Assembly: GCA_016200255.1 (NCBI GenBank)
Contig: JACQFA010000002.1
Span: 3,807 to 67,806 of the forward strand
Source of the DNA: Nitrospirota bacterium
Lineage (GTDB): Bacteria > Nitrospirota > Nitrospiria > JACQBZ01
DNA length: 64,000 nucleotides
Reading direction: 5' to 3'
This document shows positions 35,590 through 52,008 of this stretch, in pieces. Numbering within the stretch: position 1 is the stretch's first letter; every line of letters begins with the position of its first letter. A model generated the notes under the pieces. The model was not told where the DNA came from and did no database searches. It saw nothing but the letters and a program-made list of their open reading frames with translations. The position numbers and the translations under genes were made by a program.

Positions 35590-36999
35590 ATGGGTTGGTT
35601 TTCAAAGAAGACACGCAAGGTACTGGTCTTGGGACTGGATTGTGCCACGCCTCAGCTGGTTTTTGACCGCTGGCTAAAGGATCTTCCCAATATTAAGAGT
35701 CTTGTTGATCGCAGCGTTTACGGGGAAATGAAAAGCTGCGACCCGCCGATTACCGTCCCGGCATGGGCTTCGATGATGTCCAGCAAGAATCCGGGGCGTC
35801 TCGGCATCTACGGTTTCCGAAACCGCGCCGATTATTCCTACGACAAATTGACCATGGCTAATTCCACCTCGGTGAAAGAGGACCGGGTATGGGATATTCT
35901 TTCCCGCGCCGGAAAACAGGTCGCCTTGATCGGGGTTCCCCAGACCTATCCCCCCAAACCGATCAACGGCCATATGGTTACCTGCTTTCTCACCCCCGAT
36001 ATCAGCAGCAACTTTACGTATCCGGCCGAATTCCGGAATGAAGTGCAAAAGGTGGTGGGGGAATACATTCTCGACGTGAAAGATTTCAGGACGGAAAATA
36101 AGGAGCTGATCCTCCGTCAGATTTTTGAAATGACCGAAAAGCGTTTCAAACTGGCCCGGCACATGCTCAAAAACAAGCCGTGGGATTATTTCATGATGGT
36201 CGAAATGGGCGTGGACCGGATCCATCACGGTTTCTGGAAGTACATGGACACGACCCATCGCAAATACGAGGTCGGCAACCCCTTTGAGAACGCCATCTAC
36301 GATTATTACCGGTACCTCGACCGCGAAATCGGGGAAATCCTTTCGCTGATTGATTCCGATACGGTGGTCTTCCTCGTTTCGGATCACGGAGCGAAGAAGA
36401 TGGAGGGCGGAATCTGCATTAACGAGTGGTTCCGCCGGGAGGGCTATTTAAAACTGGCGGAGGATCCCGCGGGCCCGACGCCCATTTCCAGGGCCTCGGT
36501 GGACTGGCGGGAGACGAAGGCCTGGGGCGAGGGCGGTTACTATTCCCGGATTTTTATGAACGTCAAGGGGCGCGAGCCGCACGGCGCGATTGATCCGAAG
36601 GATTATGAAACGGTGCGGACTGAATTAATCGCGAAGCTGGAGGCCCTGACGGACGAAAAGGGGCAGCCCATTGGGACGAAGGTCTATCGGCCGGAGGAGC
36701 TCTATCCCGAGGTGCGGGGCATCGCGCCGGATTTGATCGCCTACTTTGGGAATCTCTATTGGCGCTCGGTGGGAAGCGTGGGTCTCGGGTCGATCCATAC
36801 ATTTGAGAACGATACCGGGCCCGATGATGCGAACCACGCCGAGCACGGAATTTTTGTCATGGCGGATCCAAAGCGGTCGGGAGAGGGCCGGAAACTAACC
36901 GGTCTTCAATTGATGGACATGGCCCCGACCATTCTGAAACTGTTTGACATGCCCGTTCCGCACGACATGGAAGGAAAGGCGGTATCATTTGCAGGCTGA
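35590..36999 (+). CDS. alkaline-phosphatase-superfamily protein, nucleotide pyrophosphatase/phosphodiesterase type (paralog 1)
   Basis: 'VLVLGLDCAT', 'DPPITVPAWASMMSSKNPGRLGIYGF' (nucleophile Thr context) and 'FLVSDHGA' are present. It is homologous to 46518..48245 and 48265..49998. Confidence 0.8.
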   Translation: MGWFSKKTRKVLVLGLDCATPQLVFDRWLKDLPNIKSLVDRSVYGEMKSCDPPITVPAWASMMSSKNPGRLGIYGFRNRADYSYDKLTMANSTSVKEDRVWDILSRAGKQVALIGVPQTYPPKPINGHMVTCFLTPDISSNFTYPAEFRNEVQKVVGEYILDVKDFRTENKELILRQIFEMTEKRFKLARHMLKNKPWDYFMMVEMGVDRIHHGFWKYMDTTHRKYEVGNPFENAIYDYYRYLDREIGEILSLIDSDTVVFLVSDHGAKKMEGGICINEWFRREGYLKLAEDPAGPTPISRASVDWRETKAWGEGGYYSRIFMNVKGREPHGAIDPKDYETVRTELIAKLEALTDEKGQPIGTKVYRPEELYPEVRGIAPDLIAYFGNLYWRSVGSVGLGSIHTFENDTGPDDANHAEHGIFVMADPKRSGEGRKLTGLQLMDMAPTILKLFDMPVPHDMEGKAVSFAG

Positions 37000-37573
37000 T
37001 GCTTTCAAAGGCGTAACGATATGGCTGACCGGCCTGCCCTCGGCCGGAAAAACAACGCTGGCCCATTTGTTGGGAAACAAACTGCGGGAAAGAGGGATCA
37101 CCGGGCTTGAAATTCTGGACGGGGATGTCATTCGGCTGAATCTTTGCAAGGATCTGGGGTTCAGCCAGGAAGACCGGATGACCAATATCCGGCGGATCGC
37201 CTTCGTCTCGCAGCTTTTAACGCGCCACGGCATCATCGTGATCGTCGCCGCAATCTCGCCCTATCGGGAAAGCCGAGATCTCGCCCGTCAGGAGATCAAG
37301 GATTTCGTCGAGGTGTTTGTCAAATGTCCGATGGACGTCCTGATCGGTCGGGATGTGAAAGGGCACTATAAAAAAGCGCTGGCTGGAAATCTCCCCCATT
37401 TCACCGGGGTATCGGACCCGTATGAAGAGCCGCTCCATCCGGAGATCCTGGTCGAAACCGACAAGGAAACGCCCGAGGCGTCGGCCGCAAAGATTCTCGG
37501 TTTTCTCAAAAAAATGGGATACCTGCCCGATTCTTTTTCGACCCTATATGAAAAACGGAAAAGCGCGCCATGA
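36944..37573 (+). CDS. cysC: adenylyl-sulfate (APS) kinase
   Basis: 'GVTIWLTGLPSAGKTTLA' (P-loop), 'LDGDVIRLNLCKDLGFSQEDR' and 'VAAISPYRESR' are present. The start is either the ATG at 36944 (56-nt overlap with the upstream gene) or the TTG at 36989 (11-nt overlap). Confidence 0.9.
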   Translation: MTCPFRTTWKERRYHLQADAFKGVTIWLTGLPSAGKTTLAHLLGNKLRERGITGLEILDGDVIRLNLCKDLGFSQEDRMTNIRRIAFVSQLLTRHGIIVIVAAISPYRESRDLARQEIKDFVEVFVKCPMDVLIGRDVKGHYKKALAGNLPHFTGVSDPYEEPLHPEILVETDKETPEASAAKILGFLKKMGYLPDSFSTLYEKRKSAP

Positions 37574-38448
37574 TCGGCCGACGGATCGATCTTCATGCCC
37601 ACAGCACGGCCTCGGACGGCAGTCTCACCCCGCCGGAACTGATCCGGTATGCCGCCGATAAAAAACTTTCCGCAATGGCCCTGACGGACCACGATTGCGT
37701 GGACGGACTGGATGAGGCCGTGGCCGAAGGGGAGCGGCTGGGCATCGAGGTGATTCCGGCGGTGGAGTTGAGCGCCGACCATCCCGACGGGACGATGCAT
37801 ATCCTGGGTTTTTTCGTGGACCGGCGGCATGAGGGGTTTTGCGGCCGGTTGCGGCGACTACAAGAGGCCCGCCGGGAGAGAAACCCGAAGATCATTCAGA
37901 ATCTTCAGTCGTTGGGATTGAATCTTACCTATGACGAAGTGGTCGCCGCGTCCGGAGGAGGACAGGTCGGCCGGCCCCATTTTGCGAAGGTTCTGGTCCA
38001 GAAGGGGTATGTCTCCTCGATGCAGGAGGCTTTCGAGCGATATCTGAAAAAAGGGGCGCCGGGATATGTCGAAAAGTTCCGGTTCAGTCCTCAGGATGCC
38101 ATCGCCGCGATTCATGAGGCGGGGGGCGTGGCCGTGCTGGCGCATCCGTTTACGTTGTACAAGGACAATTCCGTCCCGCTGGACCCGCTGCTCGAAGGGC
38201 TGTCGCAGGCCGGTCTGGACGGGATAGAAGTGATCTACAGCACTTATTCCGGGGAGCAGACGCGGTATTATCGCGAGCGGGCCGAGAAGTACAACCTGCT
38301 GCCGTCGGGCGGATCCGATTTTCACGGGGCCCATAAACCCGGAATCGATCTCGGGGTCGGTCAGGGCCGTCTCGAGGTTCCCTATGAACTGCTCGAACCG
38401 CTTCGAAAAAAGGCTCAAGGCTATAAAGTCTCGGTTCATGCCGGTTGA
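37570..38448 (+). CDS. PHP-domain phosphoesterase, TrpH/YciV (COG0613) family; candidate 3',5'-nucleoside-bisphosphate (pAp) phosphatase
   Basis: 'IDLHAHSTASDGSLTP', 'LTDHD', 'GGVAVLAHP' and 'GGSDFHG' are present, colinear with E. coli TrpH. There is an ATGA overlap with cysC. Confidence 0.8.
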   Translation: MIGRRIDLHAHSTASDGSLTPPELIRYAADKKLSAMALTDHDCVDGLDEAVAEGERLGIEVIPAVELSADHPDGTMHILGFFVDRRHEGFCGRLRRLQEARRERNPKIIQNLQSLGLNLTYDEVVAASGGGQVGRPHFAKVLVQKGYVSSMQEAFERYLKKGAPGYVEKFRFSPQDAIAAIHEAGGVAVLAHPFTLYKDNSVPLDPLLEGLSQAGLDGIEVIYSTYSGEQTRYYRERAEKYNLLPSGGSDFHGAHKPGIDLGVGQGRLEVPYELLEPLRKKAQGYKVSVHAG

Positions 38449-38498: not shown

Positions 38499-39791
38499 AT
38501 GAGCGTCGATAAACCGTTTGACGTTATTGTTATGGGCGGAGGACCGGGCGGGTCCAGCACCGCCACGTTTTTAGCTCAAAAGGGCCACAAGGTTTTGCTC
38601 CTTGAAAAAGAGCGATTCCCCCGGTTTCATATCGGCGAATCGTTGTTGCCGGCGCTATGGGACATCTGGGACGCGCTCGGAGTCACTGCGGAGCTTGAGG
38701 CGAAGGGTTTTGTGGTGAAGCAGGGCGTCAACTTTGCGATGTTTAATTCGCCCAACGATATCGCCCTTTTGACGGGCGAATACCCCGAGTACTTTCAGCG
38801 CCCGTATGCCTATCATGTCGATCGGGCGAGCTTCGACGAGATCCTTCTGAATCACGCGCGCCGGACCGGCGTCGAGGTTCGGGAGGAATGGACCGTCCAG
38901 GACGTCTTGTTTGAGGGAAGCCGGGCCGTCGGTGTGTTGGCCGGGCCCAACGGACAGGAAGCCCGGCCGATCCGGTCGTCCATCGTCGTGGACGCCACCG
39001 GACGCTCCAGTTTGATCTCGCGAAAGCTCGGCTGGCACAAGCGCGATCCGAAACTCTCCAAAGTCGCCTATTTCACGCATTTTAAAGGCGCCCGCCGCCA
39101 GGAGACGATCGAGATTTTAAAAGACCCTGTTTTATGCCAGGACGACACCTATATGACCGATATCCACACCATCGACGCCGGATGGATCTGGTACATCCCG
39201 CTAACGGATGACATTGTGAGCGTCGGAGCGGTCGTGGATTTGAAACACGACTTCGGAGCGCCGGACCCGCAGACGCGCTTCAACCGTGCGATAGCCAGTT
39301 GCTCCCGAATCCGCGACTGGGTCGGATCGTCGGAACAGCTGATCGAGATGCAGGCCATCTCGAACATTTCATACCTCAGCGATTCGTTTGTCGGAGACGG
39401 CTTCGTCTTGGTCGGAGACGCCTCGATGTTCGTGGACCCGATCTTTTCGGCCGGCGTGACGATCGCGATGCGCGGCGGGATGTTCGCGGCCGATGCGATT
39501 CATGAGGCTTTTCTGGCCGGGGATTTCAGCGCCGCGCGGCTGAAGCCTTATGAGACGAAGATCCGCCATCCGATGGGCCGTATCTTCAAGATGATTTACA
39601 ACTGGTATCACATACTGCAAAACAAGGATGCCGGCAATATTTTTGCCATGTCCCGACAGATGCCGCTTTTGCGCGAGCGGCTGATCGTACTCCTGAGCGG
39701 CGGATATGACAAGGTTGACATGGAGGCTATCCTCAAAGCGACCGAGGGCCAGATGGATCGCCTGACCGCCGGTCCGGGGAAAATGGCCTGA
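38499..39791 (+). CDS. FAD-dependent halogenase-like oxidoreductase (PltA / Trp-halogenase superfamily)
   Basis: 'VMGGGPGGS' (GxGxxG), 'FPRFHIGESLLP', Lys in 'VVKQG', 'GWIWYIPL' (WxWxIP) and 'GDASMFVDPIFSAG' are present. The ATG at 38499 follows GGGAG; the listed 38445 start is a TTG. Confidence 0.75.
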   Translation: MSVDKPFDVIVMGGGPGGSSTATFLAQKGHKVLLLEKERFPRFHIGESLLPALWDIWDALGVTAELEAKGFVVKQGVNFAMFNSPNDIALLTGEYPEYFQRPYAYHVDRASFDEILLNHARRTGVEVREEWTVQDVLFEGSRAVGVLAGPNGQEARPIRSSIVVDATGRSSLISRKLGWHKRDPKLSKVAYFTHFKGARRQETIEILKDPVLCQDDTYMTDIHTIDAGWIWYIPLTDDIVSVGAVVDLKHDFGAPDPQTRFNRAIASCSRIRDWVGSSEQLIEMQAISNISYLSDSFVGDGFVLVGDASMFVDPIFSAGVTIAMRGGMFAADAIHEAFLAGDFSAARLKPYETKIRHPMGRIFKMIYNWYHILQNKDAGNIFAMSRQMPLLRERLIVLLSGGYDKVDMEAILKATEGQMDRLTAGPGKMA

Positions 39792-39815
39792 GTGTAACTG
39801 ACAACGGAGGAGGAG

Positions 39816-42809
39816 ATGGATTTTTCAAAATCTAAGAAACGTGCGTCGGGCGGGGTCATGTTTCATCATCCGGTCGCATTTTGGCTGGGGACCGCTGTCC
39901 TGGTGGCGGGTGTCATCATGCATCTGCCGGACTACTTCAATGCCGGAGGCATGAGCTACCGCATGGCCGGGATGCCTATGTCACAGATCATGCTGATCGG
40001 CATGGCGCTGATTCTCGGTGGAATCGGCCTGGCCGCGTATGGACTGTTTCCGCGGAATTTTGGACGACCGACCGTGGATGTGGGAGAAGCATTTCATATA
40101 CGGGCGATGGACGATGCCCCCCTCACGGCGGCCCACTGGCGGCTGGTGGCGGTGCTCGGAACGGCGCTGATCGTGGACGTGATGAAGCCGGCCACGCTGG
40201 GCTTCGTCGTCCCGGGCTCCAGGGCCGAATACGGGTTGACCGCTTCCCAGGTGGCGTGGTTTCCGTTGGTGGCTCTGACCGGCACGACCATCGGTTCGGT
40301 GATCTGGGGCATGCTGGCGGATCGGCTCGGCCGACGGGGCGCGATCCTGATGGCGGCGCTGATGTTTGTCGGGACGACGATCTGCGGCGCGATGCCTTCG
40401 TTTGCCTGGAATCTATTCATGTGTTTTCTGATGGGACTGTCGGCCGGCGGGCTGTTGCCGATCGTCTTTGCGCTTCTGGCCGAAACGATGCCGGCGAAAC
40501 AGCGCGGTTGGATCACGGTGTTGATCGGCGGAATTGGAACGGTCGGCGGCTATCTCGCGGCCAGTGGAGCCGCCGCATTGTTTGAACCCCATTTCAACTG
40601 GCGGATCCTGTGGTTTTTGAATCTGCCGACCGGCGCTCTCGTGATTGCGCTGAACCGGTTTATTCCGGAATCTCCCCGCTACCTTTTTATGCACGGTCGG
40701 TCTGATGAGGCCCGTGATATGATGCAGAATTTCGGCATCACGGTGGAGAAGGAAAAGGTTGCGGCCCGGTCCATCGCCGCCCATCAAAAGGAGCATTATC
40801 TGACCAGTCTGTCCCGGTTATTCAGCGGGGTCTATCGCAGTCAGACTCTCAGTCTCGTTCTGCTCGGGTTGGCCTGGGGGCTGGTCAACTGGGGCTTCCT
40901 CACCTGGCTTCCGAGTAATTTAAGGGAGATGGGCCTGTCGGCCGGAGTTTCGAACGGAATACTGGCACGGTCCGCGTTGATCGCCATTCCCGGTATCCTA
41001 ATTGTGTCTTGGCTCTACGGTCACTGGAGCAGCAAGAAAAGCATGGTGATGTTTGGCCTGGCGACCGCCACGGTGTTGGTCGGGTTTTCCGTGATCGGCA
41101 GCGATCTTGCTAAAAACACCGGTCTGCTGGTAATGCTCGTCATGGGTCTGCTTGTCTGCAGCAGCGGAGTGATCGCGACGCTGCTTCCCTACAGCGCCGA
41201 GGTTTATCCCACGCGTCTACGGGGTATTGGAGCCGGGGTCACTTCCGCCAGCAGTAAGTTTGGCGGGATCGTTGGTCCTCCTCTCATCGCCGCCGTGATC
41301 ACCCTGTGGCCCGGTCTCACGGTTGCGGCACTGGTGACGGCGGTGCCGATCGCCGTAGCGGCGATCCTGCTCGGCCTTAAAGGATTTGAAACACGGGGCC
41401 GGCGTCTTGAAGAGATCCAGTCTTCCGCCGCCGCAAAACCAAAAGGGTCCAAGAAGCGGGATGTGGTCATTATCGGAGGAGGTCCGGCCGGAGCAGCCAG
41501 CGCGATGTTCCTGGCAAAAGAAGGCCTCCGGTCGCTGATCATCGAGGAGGAACCCTTCCCGCGTTATCACATCGGCGAGTCATTGACCGGCGCCGGCGGC
41601 CAGGTTCTGCGGGAGCTGGGACTGGACGTCGAAATGATCAAACGCAATCATCCGGTCAAGCAGGGGGTCAAAGTCTACGGCAACAACCCGAAGGGCACCT
41701 GGTTTGTACCCGTCATGGGGCGTGACGAAAACTGGAACCTCCATGACTCGGAGACCTGGCAGGTGCGTCGGAGCGAGTTCGACCGCATGATGCTCAACGA
41801 GGCCTCCTCGCGCGGCGCAGACCTTCTTCAGGGAAAGGCGACCCGGCCGCTCCGGAACGAGGACGGCTCGGTGCGGGGCGTGGAAGTCCGAATGGCCGAC
41901 GGCGGCGTTCAGGAGATCGAGTCGGAGGTTTTGCTCGACTGCTCGGGTCAGGCGACCTTCTTGGCGAATGCCGGTGTGACGGGGACCAAACATATTGGCA
42001 ATCACGTCAAGCATATCGCGATCTTCTCGCAGGTGGCCGGCGCCATCCGGGATCAGGGCGGCAGCCGCGACAACCATAAGGACAATACGCTCATTTTTTA
42101 TCAAAAGAAGTTCCACTGGGCCTGGTTCATTCCGCTTGACGACGACATCGTGAGCGTCGGGGTCGTGGTCCCGTCGTCCTATTTCCAGGAAAGGAAGGAG
42201 ACCAAACGGGATTTCCTGATTCGGGAACTGCATGAACTGCACCCGGAGCTCAAGCGTCGCCTTCCGGAAATCAAGCTGGTCGAGGAGGTTCATGCAATTC
42301 CGGACTACACCTATCAGGTGGACGAATTCTGCGGCAAGGGCTTCATCTGTATCGGAGACGCCCACCGTTTTATCGATCCGATCTTTTCTTTCGGCGTGAC
42401 GGTTGCGATGCGGGAGGCCCAGTTCGCGGCGCCGGCGATCAAGGACTATCTTGGGGGCGCCCATCGCGATCGGGCCAATCCGTTTGCCGGGCACCAGCTA
42501 TTGTGCGACAAGGGAGCCGACGTCTTGGAGGACACCATCGACCTGTTCTGGGACCAGCCGACGACCTTCGCATTTTTCGCGCATCAACGCCACAAGGAGA
42601 TGATCACGGACGTTTTTGCCGGGCGGATCTATGAAAGGCAGCCCTCCGCCTCCATCGTGGATGTGCGGAAGCTCCTCAATCGCCAGCAGGATCGTGAACG
42701 GTTTTACGAAAATCCGGACCTCTACTCGGTTCCGATCGGTTCGCGCTACCATCCTGAACGCGCATCCATTTGGGAGCCGAATTCTTCAATGGCCTCCGCG
42801 GAAGAATAG
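39816..42809 (+). CDS. fusion protein: MFS permease (N-terminal ~535 aa) + FAD-dependent halogenase-like domain (C-terminal ~450 aa)
   Basis: A single 997-codon ORF preceded by a GGAGGAGGAG RBS. MFS marks are 'GMLADRLGRRG', 'IPESPRYLF' and 'FETRGRRLEEI'. The FAD-domain marks are 'IIGGGPAGAAS', 'FPRYHIGESL', 'VKQG', 'HWAWFIPL' and 'GDAHRFIDPIFSFG'. Confidence 0.8.
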   Translation: MDFSKSKKRASGGVMFHHPVAFWLGTAVLVAGVIMHLPDYFNAGGMSYRMAGMPMSQIMLIGMALILGGIGLAAYGLFPRNFGRPTVDVGEAFHIRAMDDAPLTAAHWRLVAVLGTALIVDVMKPATLGFVVPGSRAEYGLTASQVAWFPLVALTGTTIGSVIWGMLADRLGRRGAILMAALMFVGTTICGAMPSFAWNLFMCFLMGLSAGGLLPIVFALLAETMPAKQRGWITVLIGGIGTVGGYLAASGAAALFEPHFNWRILWFLNLPTGALVIALNRFIPESPRYLFMHGRSDEARDMMQNFGITVEKEKVAARSIAAHQKEHYLTSLSRLFSGVYRSQTLSLVLLGLAWGLVNWGFLTWLPSNLREMGLSAGVSNGILARSALIAIPGILIVSWLYGHWSSKKSMVMFGLATATVLVGFSVIGSDLAKNTGLLVMLVMGLLVCSSGVIATLLPYSAEVYPTRLRGIGAGVTSASSKFGGIVGPPLIAAVITLWPGLTVAALVTAVPIAVAAILLGLKGFETRGRRLEEIQSSAAAKPKGSKKRDVVIIGGGPAGAASAMFLAKEGLRSLIIEEEPFPRYHIGESLTGAGGQVLRELGLDVEMIKRNHPVKQGVKVYGNNPKGTWFVPVMGRDENWNLHDSETWQVRRSEFDRMMLNEASSRGADLLQGKATRPLRNEDGSVRGVEVRMADGGVQEIESEVLLDCSGQATFLANAGVTGTKHIGNHVKHIAIFSQVAGAIRDQGGSRDNHKDNTLIFYQKKFHWAWFIPLDDDIVSVGVVVPSSYFQERKETKRDFLIRELHELHPELKRRLPEIKLVEEVHAIPDYTYQVDEFCGKGFICIGDAHRFIDPIFSFGVTVAMREAQFAAPAIKDYLGGAHRDRANPFAGHQLLCDKGADVLEDTIDLFWDQPTTFAFFAHQRHKEMITDVFAGRIYERQPSASIVDVRKLLNRQQDRERFYENPDLYSVPIGSRYHPERASIWEPNSSMASAEE

Positions 42810-42835
42810 ATGGAACCGGCTTCTTAAGGTTGAAA

Positions 42836-43978
42836 ATGGATTTTTCCTTTACACAGGAACAGCGTCAGTTAAAGCGGTCCTTGGTCGATTTTGCCAAGGG
42901 CGCCTTGAATGACGACCTGGCTAAACGGGATCAAGCGCGGGAGTTTTCAAGGGACCTCTGGAAACGGTGCGCCGATTTTGGGATACAGGGCCTTCCGATC
43001 CCGGCCGAGTGGGGCGGCCGCGGTCTGGACATGGTCAGCGTCTTTTATGCGCTTGAAGGGCTGGGGTACGGCTGCCGGGATAACGGTCTCGCCTTCTCGA
43101 TGCAGGCCCATCTTTGGGGTGTCTCGATGCCTCTGTCGCTCTTCGGGACCCCGGTTCAGAAGAAAAGTTATCTTCCAAAACTTTGCGATGGGAGGATGAT
43201 CGGTTCGATCGCGATGGCCGAGCCGGAGTCGGGATCGGATGCATTTACTCTGAAAACGCGCGCCGTGAAAAAAGGGGCGGGGTATGTTTTAAACGGATCG
43301 AAGACCCTGATCACGAACGCCCCGGTGGCCGATCTGTATCTTGTCTTTGCGGCGGTCGAGCCGCCTGATCCGTCCGGCGTGACGGCATTTTTGGTCGAAC
43401 GGGGCGCGCCGGGTCTGACGGTCGGCCGGACGCTGGAAACGATGGGGCTGCGCACCTCCCCCCTGGGCGAACTGAGTTTCAAGGACTGCGAGGTTCCGGC
43501 CGGGAATCTGCTCGGCAAACCGGGCGACGGGACGGTCATCTTCACCGGCGCCATGGAGCTGGAGCGGTGCGGCATCCCGGCCAGTCATGTCGGCGCGATG
43601 GAGCGGATTCTGGAGCGCTGCATCGCCTATGCGCGCGAACGCCGGCAGTTCGGAAAGCCGATCGGCGATTTTCAGGCCGTTTCCCATAAGATCGCCGAGA
43701 TGAAAATCCGGCTGGAGACGTCGCGCTTGCTGGTTTACCGGGCCGCCTGGCTCAAGAGCCAGGAGCGGCATGCCATTCTGGAGGCCTCGATCGCCAAGGC
43801 GCATGTCGGAGACGCCTATATCCAGACCTGTCTAGATGCGGTCCAGATTTACGGCGGCCGCGGTTATCTGGTCGAATTTGAACTGGAGCGGGAGCTGCGG
43901 GATGCGATCCCGAGCCGGATTTATTCCGGAACCTCCGAAATCCAGAAGAAGATCATTGCGGGCTGGCTGGGATTGTAG
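42836..43978 (+). CDS. acyl-CoA-dehydrogenase-family flavoprotein, probably an acyl/aminoacyl-carrier-protein dehydrogenase
   Basis: 380 aa with ACAD domains ('IAMAEPESGSD', 'NGSKTLITNA', 'FGKPIGDFQAVSHKIAEM', 'IYGGRGY'). The ATG is at 42836 (MDFSFTQEQ..). It lies immediately upstream of the adenylation enzyme and carrier protein. Confidence 0.8.
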   Translation: MDFSFTQEQRQLKRSLVDFAKGALNDDLAKRDQAREFSRDLWKRCADFGIQGLPIPAEWGGRGLDMVSVFYALEGLGYGCRDNGLAFSMQAHLWGVSMPLSLFGTPVQKKSYLPKLCDGRMIGSIAMAEPESGSDAFTLKTRAVKKGAGYVLNGSKTLITNAPVADLYLVFAAVEPPDPSGVTAFLVERGAPGLTVGRTLETMGLRTSPLGELSFKDCEVPAGNLLGKPGDGTVIFTGAMELERCGIPASHVGAMERILERCIAYARERRQFGKPIGDFQAVSHKIAEMKIRLETSRLLVYRAAWLKSQERHAILEASIAKAHVGDAYIQTCLDAVQIYGGRGYLVEFELERELRDAIPSRIYSGTSEIQKKIIAGWLGL

Positions 43979-43982
43979 ACGG

Positions 43983-45587
43983 ATGAATCCTCAAATAAAC
44001 AAAAATTTTCTACTGCAGCATCTCTTGACCTCCGGCGCGCTTCGCGATCCGGATGCGATGGCGGTGGTCTGCCGGGGCGCGCGATTGACCTACGGCCAGC
44101 TGGAGCGATCTTCCGACAGGATGGCCCGGCTCCTTTGTGAGGAAGGCGTGCGGCCGGGCGACCGTGTCGGAATATTTTTCCCCAAATCGGCCGAGACCCT
44201 GACCGCGATCTTCGGCATCTTGAAGGCCGGGGCGGTTTATGTGCCGATCGATCCCAAGGGACCCGCTCAGCGCGCGGCCTACATCATCCGGGACTGCGGA
44301 ATTCAAGTCCTGTTGACCGCGGCCAAGCAGAAAAGTCTTCTGACCCAGATCCTTCGCGAGGCGGCGCCCCTGCGGCTGCTGCTCTTCATGGATACTGCGG
44401 CCTCGATGGAATCGACGGACAGCCGTTCCGGTCGAGTCCTGGCCTGGCCGGAGGCGCAGGCGGCCGTGACGGAGGGTCGACCGGATCTTCCGACCATCCA
44501 TACGGACCTGGCCTACATTCTGTACACCTCCGGCTCGACCGGCCGTCCCAAGGGCGTCATGCTGAGTCATCTGAATGCGATGACTTTTGTGGACTGGGCC
44601 GTAAGTTATTTTGAGCTCCGGCCGAAGGATCGTCTTTCCAATCATGCCCCGATGCATTTTGATCTGTCCGTTTTCGACCTCTTTGCGTCCTTCAAGGCCG
44701 GCGCGTCCGTCTTTCCGATTCCGGAGGAGATCACCTTTTTCCCGATTCAGGTGGCCCAGTTCATTCAAGATCATCGCCTCACGGTCTGGTATTCGGTGCC
44801 CTCGGCCTTGATCCAGTTGCTCCAGCACGGGGAACTCCAACGGTTTGATCTTTCCGGACTCCGGTCCGTTCTGTTTGCCGGCGAGGTTTTTCCGGTGAAG
44901 TATCTTCGAATGCTGAAGGCCGCTCTCCCCGCCGCCAAGCTGTTCAACCTGTACGGACCGACCGAAACGAATGTATGCACGGTCCACCCGGTGCAGGATC
45001 TCGCGGCGGATCAAGCCATCCCGATCGGCAAGGCCTGTGCCAACGCGGCCGTCGTTGCGATGAATGAAAATAACGAACCGATCCAGGCGGGCGAAACAGG
45101 AGAGCTGTGCGTCAGCGGCCCGACCGTGATGAAGGGCTACTGGGGGCATCCGGATCTCACGGCCGCTGTCCTGGTTCCCGGTCCGGCGGAAGGCGGCGGT
45201 ACGGAGAGCGTTTACCGCACGGGCGATTTGGTGACGATCAATGAAAAGGGCGAGTACCTGTTTATCGGAAGGCGCGATCATATGATCAAGAGCCGCGGCT
45301 TCCGGATCGAGCTGGGCGAGATCGAGGCGGCGCTGGTCGACCATCCGGGGGTACAGGAGGCGGCGGTCGTCGCGATTCCGGATGAGGAAGCGGGCAACCG
45401 GATCAAGGCCGTGATTGTTCCGACCGCGGTCGCGACCTTGACGCGGGAGGAGATCGAAACGCACTGCGCGAAGAGACTCCCCCGCTACATGATTCCGGAG
45501 ATCATCGAGTTCTGCAAGGCGCTGCCGCGGACTTCGACCGGAAAAATGGATAAAACGATACTGGTAAAGGAAACAGTCCGGTCCTGA
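43983..45587 (+). CDS. stand-alone adenylation enzyme (ANL superfamily, amino-acid-adenylation type)
   Basis: Core motifs 'LAYILYTSGSTGRPKGV', 'HFDLSVFD', 'NLYGPTET', 'YRTGDLV', 'GRRDHMIKSRGFRIELGEIE' and 'PRTSTGKMDK' are present. There is no fused C or T domain. The ATG is at 43983. Confidence 0.85.
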   Translation: MNPQINKNFLLQHLLTSGALRDPDAMAVVCRGARLTYGQLERSSDRMARLLCEEGVRPGDRVGIFFPKSAETLTAIFGILKAGAVYVPIDPKGPAQRAAYIIRDCGIQVLLTAAKQKSLLTQILREAAPLRLLLFMDTAASMESTDSRSGRVLAWPEAQAAVTEGRPDLPTIHTDLAYILYTSGSTGRPKGVMLSHLNAMTFVDWAVSYFELRPKDRLSNHAPMHFDLSVFDLFASFKAGASVFPIPEEITFFPIQVAQFIQDHRLTVWYSVPSALIQLLQHGELQRFDLSGLRSVLFAGEVFPVKYLRMLKAALPAAKLFNLYGPTETNVCTVHPVQDLAADQAIPIGKACANAAVVAMNENNEPIQAGETGELCVSGPTVMKGYWGHPDLTAAVLVPGPAEGGGTESVYRTGDLVTINEKGEYLFIGRRDHMIKSRGFRIELGEIEAALVDHPGVQEAAVVAIPDEEAGNRIKAVIVPTAVATLTREEIETHCAKRLPRYMIPEIIEFCKALPRTSTGKMDKTILVKETVRS

Positions 45588-45622
45588 ATCGACCGGGTTG
45601 AAACGGAGGAGGCCGGAGATCC

Positions 45623-45898
45623 ATGATGGACAGTGCAATCATCGAAGAGAAGATCAAAACCTATATAATGACGGACCTGGCGCGCGATCACTCCGGGTCG
45701 GATTTGAAACGGGACGAATCCCTGATCGACCGGGGAATTATCGATTCGCTCGGGCTTTTCAAGCTGATCGCATTTATAGAGGAGGAATTCGGGGTTGCGG
45801 TCGAGCCCCAGGAGGTCCGAACCGATAATTTTGAAACCCTGGCGATGGTATCCGACCTGGTCGGGAAGAAAATCGCCAGGAAGTCCGCCCGTTCGTAG
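45623..45898 (+). CDS. acyl/peptidyl carrier protein
   Basis: 91 aa with 'LIDRGIIDSLGLFKLIAFIEEEFG', the DSL phosphopantetheine-attachment motif. It has a GGAGGAGG RBS. Confidence 0.85.
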   Translation: MMDSAIIEEKIKTYIMTDLARDHSGSDLKRDESLIDRGIIDSLGLFKLIAFIEEEFGVAVEPQEVRTDNFETLAMVSDLVGKKIARKSARS

Positions 45899-45921: not shown

Positions 45922-46521
45922 ATGTTTGATACCATCCGAGGGGATCTGGGAAGAAAGCGTCAGACGTATATCGTCCGGGCGATGGATCAGACCTGGTTCA
46001 ACCGGAACATCAAGATTTATCTTCAGCAGGGCAGTATCGCGGTGGCCGTTTTCCGGTTCGGGCAGTGGGTCCAACGGCTTCGAATTCCGGTGCTGAAGCA
46101 GATCCTGTTCACGGTCTACTACATTCTGAATCTGGCCGTGATCATTTTTTTCGGCATCAACATCCAGCTCAGCGCCAACATCGGCCGGGGGTTTATTGTC
46201 CATAATTATTCCGGGGTCTTTCTGGGACGGATTACGATCGGAGAGAACTGCATCGTCAATCAGGGCGTGACGATCGGGAACATCCGCGGCGAGCCGGGCC
46301 GTCCGGTTCTTGGAAATAACGTCTATATTGGGGTCAGCGCCGTTGTATTGGGAAACGTGAAAATCGGAAACAATGTCGTGATCGGGGCCAACTCGCTGGT
46401 GATCACGAACGTGCCGGACAACTGCACCGTGGTGGGGGTGCCGTCCCGGATTGTTTCCCGTCGGCCGACCAGTCCCTACTTGAAATTTGGAAATGAACCG
46501 GCGGCGGGGTCCAAGGCATGA
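45922..46521 (+). CDS. left-handed-beta-helix O-acyltransferase (serine-acetyltransferase / WcaB-like)
   Basis: Hexapeptide repeats are present ('IGENCIVNQGVTIGN..VLGNNVYIGVSAVVLGNVKIGNNVVIGANSLV'). The N-terminal helical region is typical of EPS-cluster SAT-like enzymes. Confidence 0.8.
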   Translation: MFDTIRGDLGRKRQTYIVRAMDQTWFNRNIKIYLQQGSIAVAVFRFGQWVQRLRIPVLKQILFTVYYILNLAVIIFFGINIQLSANIGRGFIVHNYSGVFLGRITIGENCIVNQGVTIGNIRGEPGRPVLGNNVYIGVSAVVLGNVKIGNNVVIGANSLVITNVPDNCTVVGVPSRIVSRRPTSPYLKFGNEPAAGSKA

Positions 46522-48245
46522 GCGCATCCCCGTCCTCAAAACCGCGCGTCCTGATCATCGGGCTGGATGGGGCCACCCTAGATCTCGTGGTCCCCTGGGC
46601 CTCCGATGGAAAACTGCCTCACATGGCCCGCCTCCTGAAGGAGGGCACATGGGGACCGCTTCAGTCTCCCATCCCCCCCATCACGCCGCCGTCCTGGAGC
46701 AGCTTCATGACCGGGATGAATCCCGGAAAGCACGGCGTATTTCATTTCATTGAACCGCAGCCCGGTAGTTACGGGATGCGGTACATCAATGCGGCCCACC
46801 GCAAGGCCCGCACGATCTGGAGCATCCTTTCGGACGCTGGCCTGACCGTCGGCGTAATGAATCTTCCTTTTACCTATCCTCCCGAGGCCGTCAACGGATT
46901 CATGATTTCGGGAATGGATACCCCGGATGAAACCAGCGACTTCGTCCATCCGCGGGCGCTCCGGGCCGAGCTGGAGCGGACCGTGGGGAAAATCAATCTA
47001 GACATCCGTTACCTCGGCTTTATGTCAACGGATGAGCGACGCGCGGCCGTTCTAAAAGAGCTGGCCCAGATCGATGAGCAGCGCACCCGGATGGCGCTCT
47101 ATCTTCTGGAGAAGCATCCGGCCGATGTCATGATGTTCGCCTACACCTCCTCCGATACGGCCCACCACTATTTCTGGCAGTTCATGGATCCGCAGCACCC
47201 GTTTTACGATCCGGTGGGGGCCAAAAAATTCGGAGGGGCCGTTCTGGAAATATACCAGCGGCTGGACCGCGCCGTCGGTCTTCTTCTGGAGCGGGTTTCC
47301 GAGGAGACGTCGGTCATCCTCGTCTCCGATCACGGGGGCGGACCCGTGTCGGACAAGGTCTTATACCTTAACCGTTTCCTGGCCAACATTGGATTGCTGG
47401 CGTACAAGACCAAGGGCCCGCTTGGCAACTGGGCGTGGCTGCAACGGCCGGTCCGGTATCTCTATGGATGGCTGCGCAGCTCGCTCTCTTCCAAACAGAA
47501 AAGCCGGCTCGCCAGGCTCTTCCCGATACTGCGGCGACGGTTGGAGGCCTCCTACACCGCCTTCAGTCAGATTGATTGGTCGCGGACCCAGGCCTTTTGT
47601 AATGAAGTCCTGATGTCGCCCCCCAATATCTGGATCAATCTCAAAGGCGACAAACCCCAGGGGATTGTGGAGTCGGGTCAGTATGATTCGCTGGTGGGCC
47701 GGATCATCGCTCATTTGTACGAGCTCAAGGATCCCCGCACCGGGCGGCAGCTCATCCGGAAAGTTTACCGGCGCGACGAGATCTATCAAGGCCCTTATGT
47801 AAACTCGGCTCCCGATCTGACCTTGTGCTGGTGGGAAAGGGACTCCTTCGTCACCAAGCCGAGCTTTCCGGAGGATCGGGGAAAACCGGTCGTCCAGATC
47901 CGGTCGGAGGGATTTCAGGACGGCTCGGAATGGAGCGGAACGCACACGCTGGACGGGATCCTGCTGCTCAAAGGGAAAGTGTTCCGATCGGGCGGCGCCG
48001 CGAAGGACAGCCGGATCATCGATCTCGCCCCGACGCTGCTTCATATACTGGGTCTGCCGGTTCCGGAGGAGATGGACGGCCGCGTGCTGACCGAGTTATT
48101 GGACGAAACCTTCCGGGCGGGGCACCCCATTCAATACCAAAAGAGCACGGGCGGCGACAGCCGTCCGGCTGGTGACGGCAGTTATTCGGAAGAGGATGCC
48201 GAAAAAATTGAAAAGCGCCTGCAGGGGCTTGGCTACATTGATTAA
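46518..48245 (+). CDS. alkaline-phosphatase-superfamily protein, NPP/phosphodiesterase type (paralog 2)
   Basis: 'VLIIGLDGAT', 'PPITPPSWSSFMTGMNPGKHGVF' and 'LVSDHGG' are present, with C-terminal tail 'YSEEDAEKIEKRLQGLGYID'. There is an ATGA overlap with the upstream gene. Confidence 0.8.
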   Translation: MSASPSSKPRVLIIGLDGATLDLVVPWASDGKLPHMARLLKEGTWGPLQSPIPPITPPSWSSFMTGMNPGKHGVFHFIEPQPGSYGMRYINAAHRKARTIWSILSDAGLTVGVMNLPFTYPPEAVNGFMISGMDTPDETSDFVHPRALRAELERTVGKINLDIRYLGFMSTDERRAAVLKELAQIDEQRTRMALYLLEKHPADVMMFAYTSSDTAHHYFWQFMDPQHPFYDPVGAKKFGGAVLEIYQRLDRAVGLLLERVSEETSVILVSDHGGGPVSDKVLYLNRFLANIGLLAYKTKGPLGNWAWLQRPVRYLYGWLRSSLSSKQKSRLARLFPILRRRLEASYTAFSQIDWSRTQAFCNEVLMSPPNIWINLKGDKPQGIVESGQYDSLVGRIIAHLYELKDPRTGRQLIRKVYRRDEIYQGPYVNSAPDLTLCWWERDSFVTKPSFPEDRGKPVVQIRSEGFQDGSEWSGTHTLDGILLLKGKVFRSGGAAKDSRIIDLAPTLLHILGLPVPEEMDGRVLTELLDETFRAGHPIQYQKSTGGDSRPAGDGSYSEEDAEKIEKRLQGLGYID

Positions 48246-48264: not shown

Positions 48265-49998
48265 ATGCCGGAAGGATCGCCACAGGGACGCAGCGTCTTC
48301 ATCCTTGGATTGGACGGGGGGACGTATGATTTGATTCTGCCGTGGGTCCAAGAGGGGCGCCTGCCGAATCTGGGGCGGCTGATTCAATCGGGCAGCCATG
48401 CGGAGCTGGCCTCGACCGTTCCGCCGATGACGCCGCCCGGATGGACGTCGTTCATGACCGGGATGAATCCAGGAAAACACGGCATCTTCGATTTTACGGA
48501 GCGGGAGCCGGGGCGCTACGAGGTCAAGATCATGAATGCGACCGACCGGCAGGCCCGCACGATCTGGTCGCTCATGAGTCAGGCCGGGAAACGGGTGGCC
48601 TCCATCGGCGTGCCGCTCACCTATCCCCCGGAGCCGGTCAACGGCGTGATGATCAGCGGGTTTGATTCGCCGGTGCTCGACCGGCGGATCATGCATCCGC
48701 CCGAACTGTTCGACGAACTGGAGAAGTCTGTAGGGGGATATCCCGTTTCGCCCGATTTCGTCCGGCATGCGGTGCGCGGGGATCTGAAACGGGCGGTCGA
48801 AATCATCTGCGAGACGATGGATCAAAAGGCCCGGGCGGTGGAATATCTTCTCAAACGGGAGGCCTGGGATTGTTTTATGCTGGTGTTCGGCGAGACGGAC
48901 GCCTGCATCCATTATTTCTGGGGACACCACGATCCTGCCTCGCCCCACCGCCCCCGGCATCCGGATCCGGGACCGGATCCGATCCGGACGGTGTACGAAA
49001 AGGTGGACGAGATTCTCGGCCGGTTGTTACCGTTGCTTCCGCCCGATTCCGGCATGATGCTCATTTCGGATCACGGGACCGGCGGCGCGGGACGCAAGAT
49101 GGTCTATCTGAACCGGTGGCTTGAAGCGGAGGGTTTTCTCGCCTTCCGGGCCGGCTCCGGACGCGGTTGTCTCCGGACGATGAACTGGCGGTTGTTGGAA
49201 GAAGCCCGGTCCTGGGCCCGCGCCGTCCTGCCGCAATCGATCCTCAAGCGGTTGAGATACCGTTCGGGTCTTGGCGCCCGGCTGGAGTCCAATCAGCGGT
49301 TTTCGGGACTGGATTGGAAGCGGACCGCGGTCTATTCCGATGAAACGCCGCATTATCCGAATCTGTGGGTCAATCTGAAGGGGCGGGAGCCGCAGGGGGT
49401 CGTGAATCCGGGCGAGGAGTACGAGTCGCTCCGGGAGCGGATCCTTGAGCGGTTGTCCGAATGGCGGGACCCCGAGACCCGGCGGCCGTTGATCAAACGG
49501 GCGTACAAACGGGAAGAGGTTTACCACGGCCCCTGTCTGGAGAGGGCGCCGGATATACTGATCGCCTGGAATCTGGACGGAAACTATTCCTATCTGAACG
49601 GCTCCAGTCTCATGGCCTCGGGCAGGGCCCCGGTGGTTGCGATCGATCCGACCGGTTTCTGGAGATCCAAATCAATGCTGAACCGGGGAGGCAGTCACCG
49701 GGAGAACGGAATCTTCCTGATCCGCGGCGAAGGAGTTCAACGAGGGCATCGCCTGCTCAAGGCCGGCATCGCGGACATGGCGCCCACGCTGCTTTACTGG
49801 ATGGGTCTTCCCGTTCCGTCCGACATGGACGGGACGGTATTGACGGAGGCGTTTGAGGATTCCTACCGGCGGGGTCATCCGGTTCATCGCGACGGGATTT
49901 CCGGCCAGGAGACCCAGGACCGCGCGCGGCTGGTTTATTCCGAAGAGGAAACGAAGAAGGTCGAAGAACGGTTGCAAAGCCTGGGGTATATCGAATGA
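48265..49998 (+). CDS. alkaline-phosphatase-superfamily protein, NPP/phosphodiesterase type (paralog 3)
   Basis: 'VFILGLDGGT', 'PPMTPPGWTSFMTGMNPGKHGIF' and 'LISDHGT' are present, with C-terminal tail 'YSEEETKKVEERLQSLGYIE'. It is colinear with paralog 2. Confidence 0.8.
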   Translation: MPEGSPQGRSVFILGLDGGTYDLILPWVQEGRLPNLGRLIQSGSHAELASTVPPMTPPGWTSFMTGMNPGKHGIFDFTEREPGRYEVKIMNATDRQARTIWSLMSQAGKRVASIGVPLTYPPEPVNGVMISGFDSPVLDRRIMHPPELFDELEKSVGGYPVSPDFVRHAVRGDLKRAVEIICETMDQKARAVEYLLKREAWDCFMLVFGETDACIHYFWGHHDPASPHRPRHPDPGPDPIRTVYEKVDEILGRLLPLLPPDSGMMLISDHGTGGAGRKMVYLNRWLEAEGFLAFRAGSGRGCLRTMNWRLLEEARSWARAVLPQSILKRLRYRSGLGARLESNQRFSGLDWKRTAVYSDETPHYPNLWVNLKGREPQGVVNPGEEYESLRERILERLSEWRDPETRRPLIKRAYKREEVYHGPCLERAPDILIAWNLDGNYSYLNGSSLMASGRAPVVAIDPTGFWRSKSMLNRGGSHRENGIFLIRGEGVQRGHRLLKAGIADMAPTLLYWMGLPVPSDMDGTVLTEAFEDSYRRGHPVHRDGISGQETQDRARLVYSEEETKKVEERLQSLGYIE

Positions 49999-51438: not shown

Positions 51439-52008
51439 ATGGGGTTCGTCATGGCTTCACCCGTTGGACATTCGCTGGCCGGGGTTTCGCTCTATCTTTT
51501 CCTGACCCGAAAGACGGACGGACCGGCGATCCGGGCCGATTGGAAAACGGCGGCCCTTCTGGTGGCCGCCGCCAATCTTCCGGACATTGATTTTCTCATC
51601 GGGTATGCGGTCTACGGCGATCCGAACCGCATCCACGGCGGGTGGACGCATGCCGGCCTGTTTGCCGCTGCGGCGGCCTGGGTTCTGACCCGGCTGCATC
51701 GGTTCCAACCCTCCGTCGGCACGGCGGGTTGGGCCTACTTTTTTGCGGTTGCATCCCATGGGATTATGGATTTCTTTACCGGTCCGACGATCGGTCTTTA
51801 TCCCTCCTACGGGGTGGCCTTTCTCTGGCCGTTTCACGGCGAAAAATTGAAGTCGCCGGTGACATTCTTTCAGGGCCCGCGGCACCGCAGTCTGGACCAG
51901 TTGCTGACCGTGGACAATCTTTGGGGGATGATGTACGAACTTCTTCTATGGATTCCCCTGGTATGGGGGCTGATCATATTTCTCAGGAAAAACCGGAGAA
52001 CCGAATGA
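51439..52008 (+). CDS. membrane-bound metal-dependent hydrolase (YdjM / DUF457 family)
   Basis: 'SPVGHSLAG', 'PDIDFLIGY', 'GGWTHA' and 'SHGIMDFFTG' are spread over 4-5 TM helices. The start is either 51439 or 51451 (MASPVGH..). Confidence 0.7.
   Translation: MGFVMASPVGHSLAGVSLYLFLTRKTDGPAIRADWKTAALLVAAANLPDIDFLIGYAVYGDPNRIHGGWTHAGLFAAAAAWVLTRLHRFQPSVGTAGWAYFFAVASHGIMDFFTGPTIGLYPSYGVAFLWPFHGEKLKSPVTFFQGPRHRSLDQLLTVDNLWGMMYELLLWIPLVWGLIIFLRKNRRTE

Follow-up and report, generated by a model that had tools for sequence, protein, structure and literature searches.

Where does a halogenated pyrrole go when it is built on a carrier protein and no assembly line is present to receive it? This question is raised by a 64,000-nucleotide stretch of a Nitrospirota genome, referred to below as the window (assembly GCA_016200255.1, contig JACQFA010000002.1, positions 3,807 to 67,806). 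Five consecutive genes in the window encode two halogenase-like proteins, one of them fused to a major facilitator superfamily (MFS) transporter, an acyl-CoA dehydrogenase (ACAD) family enzyme, a stand-alone adenylation (A) enzyme and a small peptidyl carrier protein (PCP). The initial annotation of this DNA read them as a cassette that turns proline into a (halo)pyrrolyl-S-PCP thioester, and it allowed two destinations: export as a small metabolite, or attachment to a glycan or glycolipid. The comparison of related loci speaks for attachment rather than export, by way of a hexapeptide-repeat acyltransferase gene (Hexa) directly adjacent to the cassette.

The reading to which we give somewhat better than even chances is that the predicted halopyrrolyl-S-PCP cassette feeds Hexa, which would decorate a sulfated envelope glycoconjugate, and that the cassette is an interchangeable aroyl-donor module. 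The model is built from domain identities, a proline specificity code, halogenase motifs, synteny and co-occurrence, all of them taken from sequence.

A predicted proline-to-halopyrrole cassette

Domains were called from Pfam and NCBIfam scans, the Pfam scans covering essentially every open reading frame (ORF) of at least 150 residues in the window, and solved relatives were taken from a PDB sequence search. About 170 related loci, numbered with the prefix L, were compared in all. The five co-directional genes described earlier at 38499-45898 are all present as ORFs on the + strand with those limits. Their spacing had been given as 4-50 nt. The four intergenic gaps measure 24, 26, 4 and 35 nt, which is operon-like, but the 50-nt gap lies outside the five, between a PHP-family phosphatase gene and the gene for the first halogenase, Hal1.

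The adenylation enzyme appears to be specific for L-proline. Its ten-residue code was read by ungapped alignment to the A4-A5 region of PheA and checked against an alignment to PltF. The result, DLFYLALVCK, is the Pro-like code that the pyrrole model predicted: it is identical at 9 of the 10 positions to that of PltF (6o6e; DLLYLALVCK), and a second L-proline ligase (7thn) has DLFYIAWVCK. The enzyme scores 399 bits with TIGR01733, "amino acid adenylation domain" (cut-off 317). Its best single-domain PDB match is PltF, an L-proline-[prolyl-carrier-protein] ligase, at 355 bits, compared with 206-224 bits for the DltA entries. Identification as DltA or as a fatty-acyl-AMP ligase is ruled out by the code and by this order of matches. 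The carrier protein is free-standing, belongs to the PP-binding family and has its phosphopantetheinyl serine, Ser42, in the motif IDSLG.

The ACAD-family protein does not group with ordinary beta-oxidation enzymes, an outcome that would have spoken against the pyrrole model. Its best PDB match is AnaB (4irn) with 428 bits, whereas no butyryl-CoA dehydrogenase scores above 297, and its top NCBIfam models are PigA (418 bits) and RedW (395 bits), whose equivalog cut-offs of 500 and 650 are not reached. AnaB is the prolyl-ACP dehydrogenase of anatoxin biosynthesis (ACP, acyl carrier protein); it yields (S)-pyrroline-5-carboxyl-AnaD and stops at the pyrroline (PMC3252866). For the ACAD of the window, halogenases of the pyrrole type in the same cassette make pyrrole, rather than pyrroline, the more likely product.

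Both flavin adenine dinucleotide (FAD) domains, previously called no more than halogenase-like, keep GxGxxG, the aligned catalytic lysine and WxWxIP. In Hal1 the motifs are GGGPGG at residue 13, FVVKQG (Lys75), WIWYIP at residue 229 and GDASMFVDPIFSAG at residue 306. In the second domain, Hal2, they are GGGPAG at residue 554 of the fusion, the lysine in HPVKQG, WAWFIP at residue 768 and GDAHRFIDPIFSFG at residue 847. The motif GDAxxFxDPxFSxG is retained by Hal1 and Hal2 alike. The PDB matches of Hal1 are halogenases of carrier-bound substrates, namely CndH (215 bits), ChlB4 (192), PltA (186) and Mpy16 (186). Hal2 matches Bmp2 (5bva) with 262 bits, the next entry following at 151. Bmp2 is the brominase that installs all of the bromines on a proline-derived pyrrolyl-ACP (PMC10509201). 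Three positions distinguish Bmp2 5bva (Y, F, A) from its triple mutant 5bul (S, V, W); the Hal2 residues there are F, V and L, an intermediate pattern that points to no particular number of halogens.

The proline code, the dehydrogenase relatives and the halogenase motifs therefore support the pyrrole model, and the cassette is, as far as its sequence can tell, the proline-to-(halo)pyrrolyl-S-PCP set.

The fusion of an MFS transporter to Hal2 is not an assembly artefact, since it recurs in three independent assemblies (P0001, P0002 and P0003, with 91%, 60% and 58% identity). An exact database look-up of the fusion protein returned no record. The transporter domain belongs to a widespread family of about 550 residues, whose members are 50-62% identical to it. 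A survey of this family comprised 81 loci, 80 of them metagenomic and one from Gemmatirosa. In about ten of these a halogenase and/or a Pro cassette directly adjoins the MFS homologue, and clustering of the neighbours of all 81 found, beyond these genes, only unrelated housekeeping genes. The transporter was not found in the non-halogenated acidobacterial cassettes described below. By these co-occurrences, it would track halogenation and not proline activation; its substrate could possibly be halide, product or precursor.

An example of the unfused state is L097, in which the genes are arranged A-PCP-Hal-MFS-Hal2like-ACAD and the Hal2-like gene starts 4 nt past the MFS stop (L097 4995-7925). 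Such pairs suggest that two adjacent genes were the earlier state and that their fusion in the window came later. A 385-residue protein encoded after L097-type cassettes had no Pfam or PDB relative. In Gemmatirosa kalamazoonensis the MFS gene is paired with a different gene, for a 533-residue protein resembling flavin-dependent halogenases, and there is no Pro cassette. The sites at which this MFS family lies next to flavin-dependent halogenases include L086 7653-9335 and L088 3339-6659.

Absence of an assembly line

The initial annotation had recognised no ketosynthase (KS), condensation (C) or thioesterase (TE) domain in the locus, and the Pfam scans of essentially all ORFs of at least 150 residues in the 64-kb window likewise found none. 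The sole thioesterase-like gene, on the - strand at 25298-25831, encodes a hotdog protein of the 4HBT_2 family. It was rejected as a release enzyme: it lies 13 kb upstream of the cassette, on the opposite strand and among unrelated neighbours. There is no Bmp1-type ACP-TE didomain in the window; the PCP stands alone and the operon has no Thioesterase domain. Pfam scans found neither an MBOAT (DltB) nor a DltD family member in the window. The searches turned up none of the acceptor and release domains that define the Plt, Red, Pig and Bmp pathways, and the locus is therefore not one of these.

A relative of the fusion does occur near a thioesterase. On a JGI contig (L001 10001-15095), a sugar-modification cluster contains a homologous MFS-Hal2 fusion, whose Hal2 part is 69% identical; a gene for an ACP-TE didomain of Bmp1-like architecture stands two genes away from this fusion. 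Genes of lasso-peptide type (PqqD, transglutaminase-like, Asn synthase) are also nearby, and there is no A or ACAD gene within 10 kb of this fusion.

An acyltransferase that accompanies carrier proteins

Hexa starts 23 nt past the stop codon of the PCP gene. Its closest solved relatives are serine O-acetyltransferases (76 bits), to which the alignment is limited to the beta-helix part. The models EpsC (103 bits, cut-off 150), CysE (90 bits, cut-off 211) and WcaB all match below their cut-offs. Hexa was rejected as a true CysE or EpsC because of these scores, because the N-terminal domain of serine acetyltransferases is missing, and because the alignment puts Gln where the "DIH" motif has its His.

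The genomic company of Hexa was surveyed in GTDB species genomes, seeded on the acyltransferase; this gave 79 loci, which were scored by tblastn. A ligase gene and a carrier gene both lie within 5 kb of Hexa in 30 of the 79. Relatives of Hexa are found directly beside carrier genes with three different chemistries and in several phyla. In a neighbour-joining tree the carrier-linked acyltransferases form two clades, and more distant members have no nearby carrier.

The first chemistry is that of proline without halogen. About 22 Acidobacteriota loci carry Hexa-ACAD-A-PCP as a single block, and the code DLFYLALVCK is identical in every Hexa-linked orthologue of the A enzyme surveyed. These blocks are flanked by export genes for extracellular polysaccharide (EPS), namely Poly_export, Wzz and AAA_22, and by a priming Bac_transf gene; no KS or C domain is encoded within 10 kb of them. 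Only one of the blocks, in L074, has a halogenase, the cassette and acyltransferase otherwise occurring without one. In L044 (13991-19870) and about 12 other Acidobacteriota loci, the block is directly followed by an adenylation-thiolation (A-T) gene with the code DAWFLGNVVK, a P450 gene and an A-T-TE gene with the code DIEDIGTVIK. This set resembles a nonribosomal peptide synthetase (NRPS) without any C domain, placed within a polysaccharide locus.

The second chemistry is that of 4-hydroxybenzoate. About ten Alteromonadaceae and Hydrogenophilales loci have a 4-hydroxybenzoate ligase/carrier module. The order in these two groups, and in a contig of unknown origin (L006), is AMP-ligase, chorismate pyruvate-lyase, carrier, Hexa. 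In the Alteromonadaceae and Hydrogenophilales loci Hexa starts 19 nt past the carrier stop. Genes for a family 4 glycosyltransferase (GT4), YdjM and a membrane fusion protein (MFP) come next in all except L006, and a match to a Wzx flippase is present only in Alteromonadaceae. The lyase is Rv2949c-like, would make 4-hydroxybenzoate and stands beside the Hexa family at L004 8758-10576, L006 8119-11203 and L026 3073-5968. An AMP-ligase and a carrier of about 80 residues usually accompany it, but L004 has the lyase and neither of the other two.

The third chemistry is that of the halogenases. Besides the window, a Pseudomonadota metagenome-assembled genome (MAG; L015) has Hal1 (55%), A, PCP and Hexa in a row, adjoining PMT_2 and GH42-like genes.

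The glycan backbone

Downstream of Hexa the window continues with genes that recur in other loci and are referred to here as the backbone: proteins with the fold of nucleotide pyrophosphatases/phosphodiesterases (NPP), GT4, YdjM, the MFP, an outer-membrane factor (OMF), Wzx, a TPR protein and a GT-C glycosyltransferase. The hexapeptide acyltransferase, GT4, flippase, APS (adenosine 5'-phosphosulfate) kinase, MFP and OMF named in the initial annotation are all real. The backbone is conserved in Nitrospirota and Verrucomicrobiota, and it also occurs without a carrier module, in Nitrospiria L004 and in about 20 Verrucomicrobiota loci (AP469-like, AP575-like, Hexa, GT4, YdjM, MFP, OMF, Wzx, TPR, PMT_2). 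At the position of the cassette, L004 has the chorismate lyase and two Hexa genes. Orthologues of the GT-C gene are found in L004, in Verrucomicrobiota and in L015 beside Hal1-A-PCP-Hexa; homologues of the GH42-like gene occur in L015 and in Alteromonas L026. An EmrAB-TolC-like pump, with the MFP and OMF as partners of the fused MFS, is disfavoured, because both are backbone genes found where the MFS is absent.

The closest relatives of the locus are Nitrospirota MAGs. L002 (GCA_016198945, Nitrospirota) has the same order as the window from the AP genes to GT4, and L086/L087 have that order too, but with an unfused 560-residue MFS and no Hal2. Identity between L002 and the window is 84-93% from the APS kinase to the ACAD and 40-62% from Hexa to YdjM. 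For L086 it is 78-90% in AP469, Hexa, AP575, AP577 and GT4, and 62% in the MFS. Such mosaic profiles suggest that halogenation genes have been exchanged between diverged backbones, and the pattern of identities indicates that the halogenation block recombined recently.

The glycoconjugate is probably sulfated, since an APS kinase and a predicted phosphatase for PAP (3',5'-nucleoside bisphosphate) open the operon. One Verrucomicrobiota backbone locus (L019) itself opens with an ATP-sulfurylase/APS-kinase fusion, and the Alteromonas backbone, which has no NPP-like genes, has a canonical Sulfotransfer_1 gene. Both of these point to a common product that is probably sulfated. In the loci with NPP-like genes, sulfate-activation genes are present and a canonical sulfotransferase was not seen (sites compared: the window, L019 61-5826, L026 6529-7377). 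NPP-fold paralogues may be non-canonical users of PAPS (3'-phosphoadenosine 5'-phosphosulfate), the product of APS kinase.

Three such paralogues, AP469, AP575 and AP577, all cytoplasmic, are encoded in the window. The AlphaFold2 model of AP469 has a pLDDT of 93, and its best folds in Foldseek are NPP1, Xac NPP and ENPP6, with TM-scores of about 0.58. A PDB sequence search with the NPP-like proteins gave weak ENPP matches only, and the fold search bore out the NPP fold but indicated no specific function. Orthologues of AP469 are 61-65% identical in Verrucomicrobiota backbone loci. Sulfate-activation genes lie beside such an orthologue in L016 (an APS-kinase match by tblastn only) and in L019 (the fusion, by Pfam). 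AP575 is 39% identical to AP577 and 30% to AP469, and its orthologues are 53-59% identical in Nitrospiria and Verrucomicrobiota backbone loci. The AP469 family as a whole is very large and has no name, with members 62-73% identical across phyla.

The operon seems to start at 35590 and to run to about 60298 (Table 1). A scan found a promoter-like site at 35514-35542, before the first gene, which is suggestive only; a terminator scan of the locus did no better than a shuffled control. The start of the APS kinase gene is uncertain, its ORF opening at 36944 with a TTG at 36989.

Table 1. Features of the operon and its immediate surroundings in the window
Feature	Position	Strand	Basis
AP469, cytoplasmic NPP-like protein (alkaline-phosphatase superfamily), first operon gene	35590..36999	+	Phosphodiest E = 3e-52
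APS kinase (makes PAPS)	36989..37573	+	APS_kinase E = 1.7e-57; TIGR00455 217 bits (cut-off 138.7)
PHP-family phosphatase, probably for PAP	37570..38448	+	Pfam PHP; NF041577 223 bits, below the cut-off of 400
Hal1, flavin-dependent halogenase of the carrier-protein-dependent class	38499..39791	+	Trp_halogenase, FAD_binding_3; PDB matches; motifs
MFS-Hal2 fusion, 997 aa	39816..42809	+	MFS_1/Sugar_tr at aa ~98-538; Trp_halogenase/FAD_binding_3 at aa 547-983
MFS transporter domain of the fusion	39816..41453	+	aa 1-546; MFS_1, Sugar_tr; ~14 hydrophobic segments (rough hydropathy scan)
Hal2, Bmp2-like flavin-dependent halogenase domain of the fusion	41454..42809	+	aa 547-997; PDB matches, motifs
ACAD-family enzyme, predicted prolyl-S-carrier-protein dehydrogenase	42836..43978	+	All three Acyl-CoA_dh domains; AnaB/PigA/RedW scores
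Stand-alone adenylation enzyme, L-proline type	43983..45587	+	AMP-binding and AMP-binding_C; TIGR01733; PltF match; code
Peptidyl carrier protein, 91 aa	45623..45898	+	PP-binding E = 1.6e-5; GIIDSLG, Ser42
Hexa, hexapeptide-repeat (left-handed beta-helix) acyltransferase, proposed off-loader	45922..46521	+	Pfam Hexapep
AP575, NPP-like paralogue, backbone gene	46518..48245	+	Phosphodiest E = 1.2e-44
AP577, NPP-like paralogue	48265..49998	+	Phosphodiest E = 2.1e-39
GT4 glycosyltransferase (backbone)	49995..51308	+	Glyco_transf_4, Glycos_transf_1; 41-62% identity in backbone loci
YdjM-family membrane hydrolase (backbone)	51439..52008	+	Pfam YdjM; conserved in backbone loci
Periplasmic adaptor (MFP)	52005..53135	+	HlyD_D23; TIGR01730 201 bits, above cut-off; likely start 52005
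Outer-membrane factor (TolC-like)	53113..54468	+	Pfam OEP
Wzx/MOP-family flippase	54465..55931	+	Polysacc_synt; MOP flippase models match below cut-offs
TPR protein (backbone)	55933..57174	+	TPR families
GT-C (PMT_2/ArnT-like) glycosyltransferase with N-terminal carbohydrate-binding-like domain	57179..60298	+	PMT_2, Bac_rhamnosid_N
GH42-like protein, recurs with the backbone	60295..61461	-	Glyco_hydro_42, weak match

Elsewhere in the window, and unrelated to this locus, are a complete RND efflux set (OMF, AcrB-like, MFP) at 8494-14345 on the - strand and a large Lhr-type helicase at 18321-22637 on the + strand.

A model for the cassette

In the model proposed here, the A enzyme would load L-proline onto the PCP, and the ACAD-type flavoenzyme would convert prolyl-S-PCP to pyrrolyl-2-carboxyl-S-PCP, presumably in a four-electron oxidation. 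The tethered pyrrole would then be halogenated by Hal1 and by the Hal2 domain, which the fused MFS would hold at the membrane, to give a presumed (poly)halopyrrolyl thioester.

Next, the thioester would go to Hexa as donor, and not to a polyketide synthase (PKS), an NRPS or a thioesterase. Hexa would O-acylate a hydroxyl of an envelope glycoconjugate intermediate, the likely acceptor, on the cytoplasmic side. Acylation would precede flipping by Wzx and processing by the periplasmic GT-C enzyme, while the downstream backbone would build and export the glycoconjugate. PAPS-dependent sulfation would probably belong to the same pathway. In other lineages, the 4-hydroxybenzoate module would replace the pyrrole cassette.

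Several points weigh against this model. The operon contains no flavin reductase gene; an FMN_red gene, for an SsuE-like NADPH-dependent FMN reductase, lies at 5704-6291 on the - strand, 32 kb from the halogenases, and is a possible unlinked source of reduced flavin. Nor does the operon in the window encode a canonical sulfotransferase. Two of the assignments, those of the ACAD and of the PHP protein, rest below NCBIfam equivalog cut-offs, and the single closest solved relative of the ACAD is AnaB, a pyrroline-stage enzyme.

Other points concern Hexa itself. Verrucomicrobiota backbone loci without a carrier module encode it too, so it could be an ordinary acetyl-CoA-dependent O-acetyltransferase of the backbone whose adjacency to the PCP is positional. 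Likewise, the break in identity to L002 falls between the PCP and Hexa, and this suggests that Hexa belongs, in evolutionary terms, to the backbone and not to the cassette. Finally, about half of the Acidobacteriota cassettes are followed by the A-T, P450 and A-T-TE genes, and the pyrrolyl group in those loci might enter a small peptide-like product.

A broader form of the model is tentative and, taken as a whole, rather unlikely. It states that Hexa represents a cross-phylum family that off-loads aromatic acyl groups from dedicated carrier proteins onto sulfated cell-surface glycans. For Acidobacteriota the group would be pyrrole-2-carboxyl, for Alteromonadaceae 4-hydroxybenzoyl and for the Nitrospirota lineage of the window polyhalopyrrolyl. 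The MFS would aid halogenation, for instance by supplying halide, and the NPP-like proteins would replace the sulfotransferase. If so, the envelope of the organism of the window would contain a sulfated polysaccharide or glycolipid with covalently bound halogen. We know of no described organohalogen of this kind.

Alternative explanations

The alternative that survives best, although we consider it unlikely, is that the end product is a small halogenated metabolite. The thioester of halopyrrolyl-S-PCP would be cleaved spontaneously or by a hydrolase, YdjM being one candidate. Halopyrrole-2-carboxylate or a decarboxylated polyhalopyrrole would then leave through the MFS, the MFP-OMF pair or both, and the neighbouring glycan genes would have nothing to do with it. 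Such a product has a precedent in the pathway of Bmp2, the nearest relative of Hal2, which ends in free tetrabromopyrrole (PMC10509201). A releasing domain is also at hand in L001, where the ACP-TE gene is two genes from the same fusion, but the window has neither a TE nor an ACP-TE and its PCP is free-standing. Export would be suggested by the fusion of a halogenase to an MFS and by the MFP and OMF genes downstream. However, the MFS is closer to uptake symporters for metabolites and aromatic acids (151 bits) than to EmrB-type exporters (43 bits), and the MFP, OMF and YdjM are backbone genes, kept in loci that have neither the cassette nor the MFS. Metagenomic cassettes of the L097 type (A-PCP-Hal-MFS-Hal-ACAD) do lack the hexapeptide acyltransferase, as a free metabolite would predict. 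The repeated tight coupling of carrier and acyltransferase genes across phyla would nevertheless be left unexplained.

Another model keeps Hexa as the enzyme that takes pyrrolyl-S-PCP but replaces its acceptor. The acyl group would pass to the hydroxyl or amine of a small molecule, such as serine or a beta-hydroxy amino acid, either free or bound to a carrier, and the product would be a diffusible ester or amide. This is quite improbable. The kinship to serine O-acetyltransferases, both in the PDB and in the top NCBIfam models EpsC and CysE, speaks for it, yet their N-terminal domain and the "DIH" His are not conserved in Hexa and the scores stay below the cut-offs. In the same way, the A-T and P450 genes in half of the Acidobacteriota loci are a classical pair for beta-hydroxylation, and the A-T-TE that follows comes without a C domain, but these NRPS-like genes are absent from the window and from L002 (the sequence of L086 ends at GT4). 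Moreover, the genes lie within loci for glycan assembly and export in every lineage.

It is very improbable that the halopyrrolyl group is a starter unit, supplied in trans to a PKS or NRPS elsewhere in the genome, with the glycan context a coincidence. Sets of the PltF/L/E/A type are normally used in this way, and the window shows no more than 64 kb of the genome, but L002 and L086 have kept the whole stretch from AP469 to GT4 together. The cassette and acyltransferase also lie together in EPS loci of about 22 acidobacterial species with no KS or C domain in the 10 kb around them.

Scarcely credible is an ACAD that stops, as AnaB does, at pyrroline-5-carboxyl-S-PCP, with FAD enzymes that act elsewhere or as non-halogenating oxidases, since the pyrrole-forming PigA and RedW profiles score about as well as AnaB, both FAD domains have the halogenase-specific Lys and WxWxIP, Hal2 closely matches Bmp2, and electrophilic halogenation requires an aromatic pyrrole.

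Comparison with known systems

The cassette shares its enzymes with the pathways to pyoluteorin (PltF/PltL/PltE/PltA), prodiginine (RedM/RedO/RedW and PigI/PigG/PigA) and pyrrolomycin-type compounds (Mpy16): an A enzyme for proline, a free PCP, an ACAD and halogenases with the Lys and WxWxIP motifs. Unlike these, the window has no KS, C domain, PKS or NRPS. Its cassette has an embedded MFS, fused to one of the halogenases, its PCP is followed by Hexa, and the whole is placed inside an operon for a glycan and for sulfate activation. The Bmp1-4 pathway to tetrabromopyrrole in Pseudoalteromonas has a similar logic, in which a proline-derived, carrier-tethered pyrrole is polyhalogenated, and includes the nearest relative of Hal2. 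It differs in its Bmp1-type ACP-TE, which the window lacks and which L001 has near its homologous fusion.

The nearest functional precedent is found in clorobiocin and coumermycin, in which CloN3/N4/N5 are followed by CloN2/CloN1/CloN7 and the acceptor is the 3'-OH of noviose. The order ACAD-A-PCP in the window is, according to the initial annotation, that of CloN3/N4/N5. CloN2 and CloN7 are not known to be hexapeptide-repeat proteins. The window, unlike clorobiocin, has no second carrier, its presumed acceptor is an envelope glycan instead of an aminocoumarin glycoside, and its transferase is unrelated. In clorobiocin biosynthesis the proline-derived pyrrole-2-carboxyl group leaves its carrier protein and ends up esterified to a hydroxyl of the sugar (PMC11218499).

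Carrier-dependent acylation of envelope or secreted glycans is known in outline from the Dlt (DltA/DltC/DltB/DltD) and NodF/NodE/NodA systems, whose defining proteins the locus lacks. What it shares with them is the scheme in which an adenylating enzyme and a small carrier of its own provide the acyl group for a glycopolymer or oligosaccharide. In contrast to Dlt, the A domain of the window is of the Pro type, there is no MBOAT protein or DltD, and the transferase is a soluble left-handed beta-helix protein. In contrast to both Dlt and Nod, the acyl group is predicted to be oxidised and halogenated while tethered.

A last resemblance is to the EPS loci of the PEP-CTERM/exosortase-A type. The second-best NCBIfam match of the A enzyme is TIGR03098 (374 bits, cut-off 592), and the EPS loci that surround the acidobacterial cassettes, with their export and priming genes, are akin to these loci. 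The window, however, showed neither exosortase nor PEP-CTERM genes, and the score lies below the equivalog cut-off. To our knowledge, the function of the TIGR03098 ligase/ACP pair of exosortase loci is uncharacterised.

Implications

The literature on Nitrospirota halogenases, on pyrrole-2-carboxyl groups on polysaccharides and on prolyl-carrier dehydrogenases in EPS loci yielded no paper on such a system. The enzyme chemistry is familiar; a destination on an envelope glycan would be unexpected. Should a small metabolite be the product after all, the locus would still be a halopyrrole pathway without a thioesterase, and it would come from a phylum in which little secondary metabolism has been described.

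If the glycan is indeed the acceptor, the chemistry that turns proline into halopyrroles would extend from antibiotic assembly lines to the decoration of the cell envelope. A definite role could be given to a large group of unannotated "serine acetyltransferase" genes and to the ligase and carrier genes in EPS loci of Acidobacteriota, Alteromonadaceae, Verrucomicrobiota and Nitrospirota; the pattern reaches many uncharacterised EPS loci. The locus would also offer candidates for an MFS transporter linked to halogenation and for a protein of the NPP fold that takes a non-canonical part in PAPS metabolism. Polymer-bound organohalogens would then have a possible natural source in the surface polysaccharides of uncultured bacteria from groundwater and soil.

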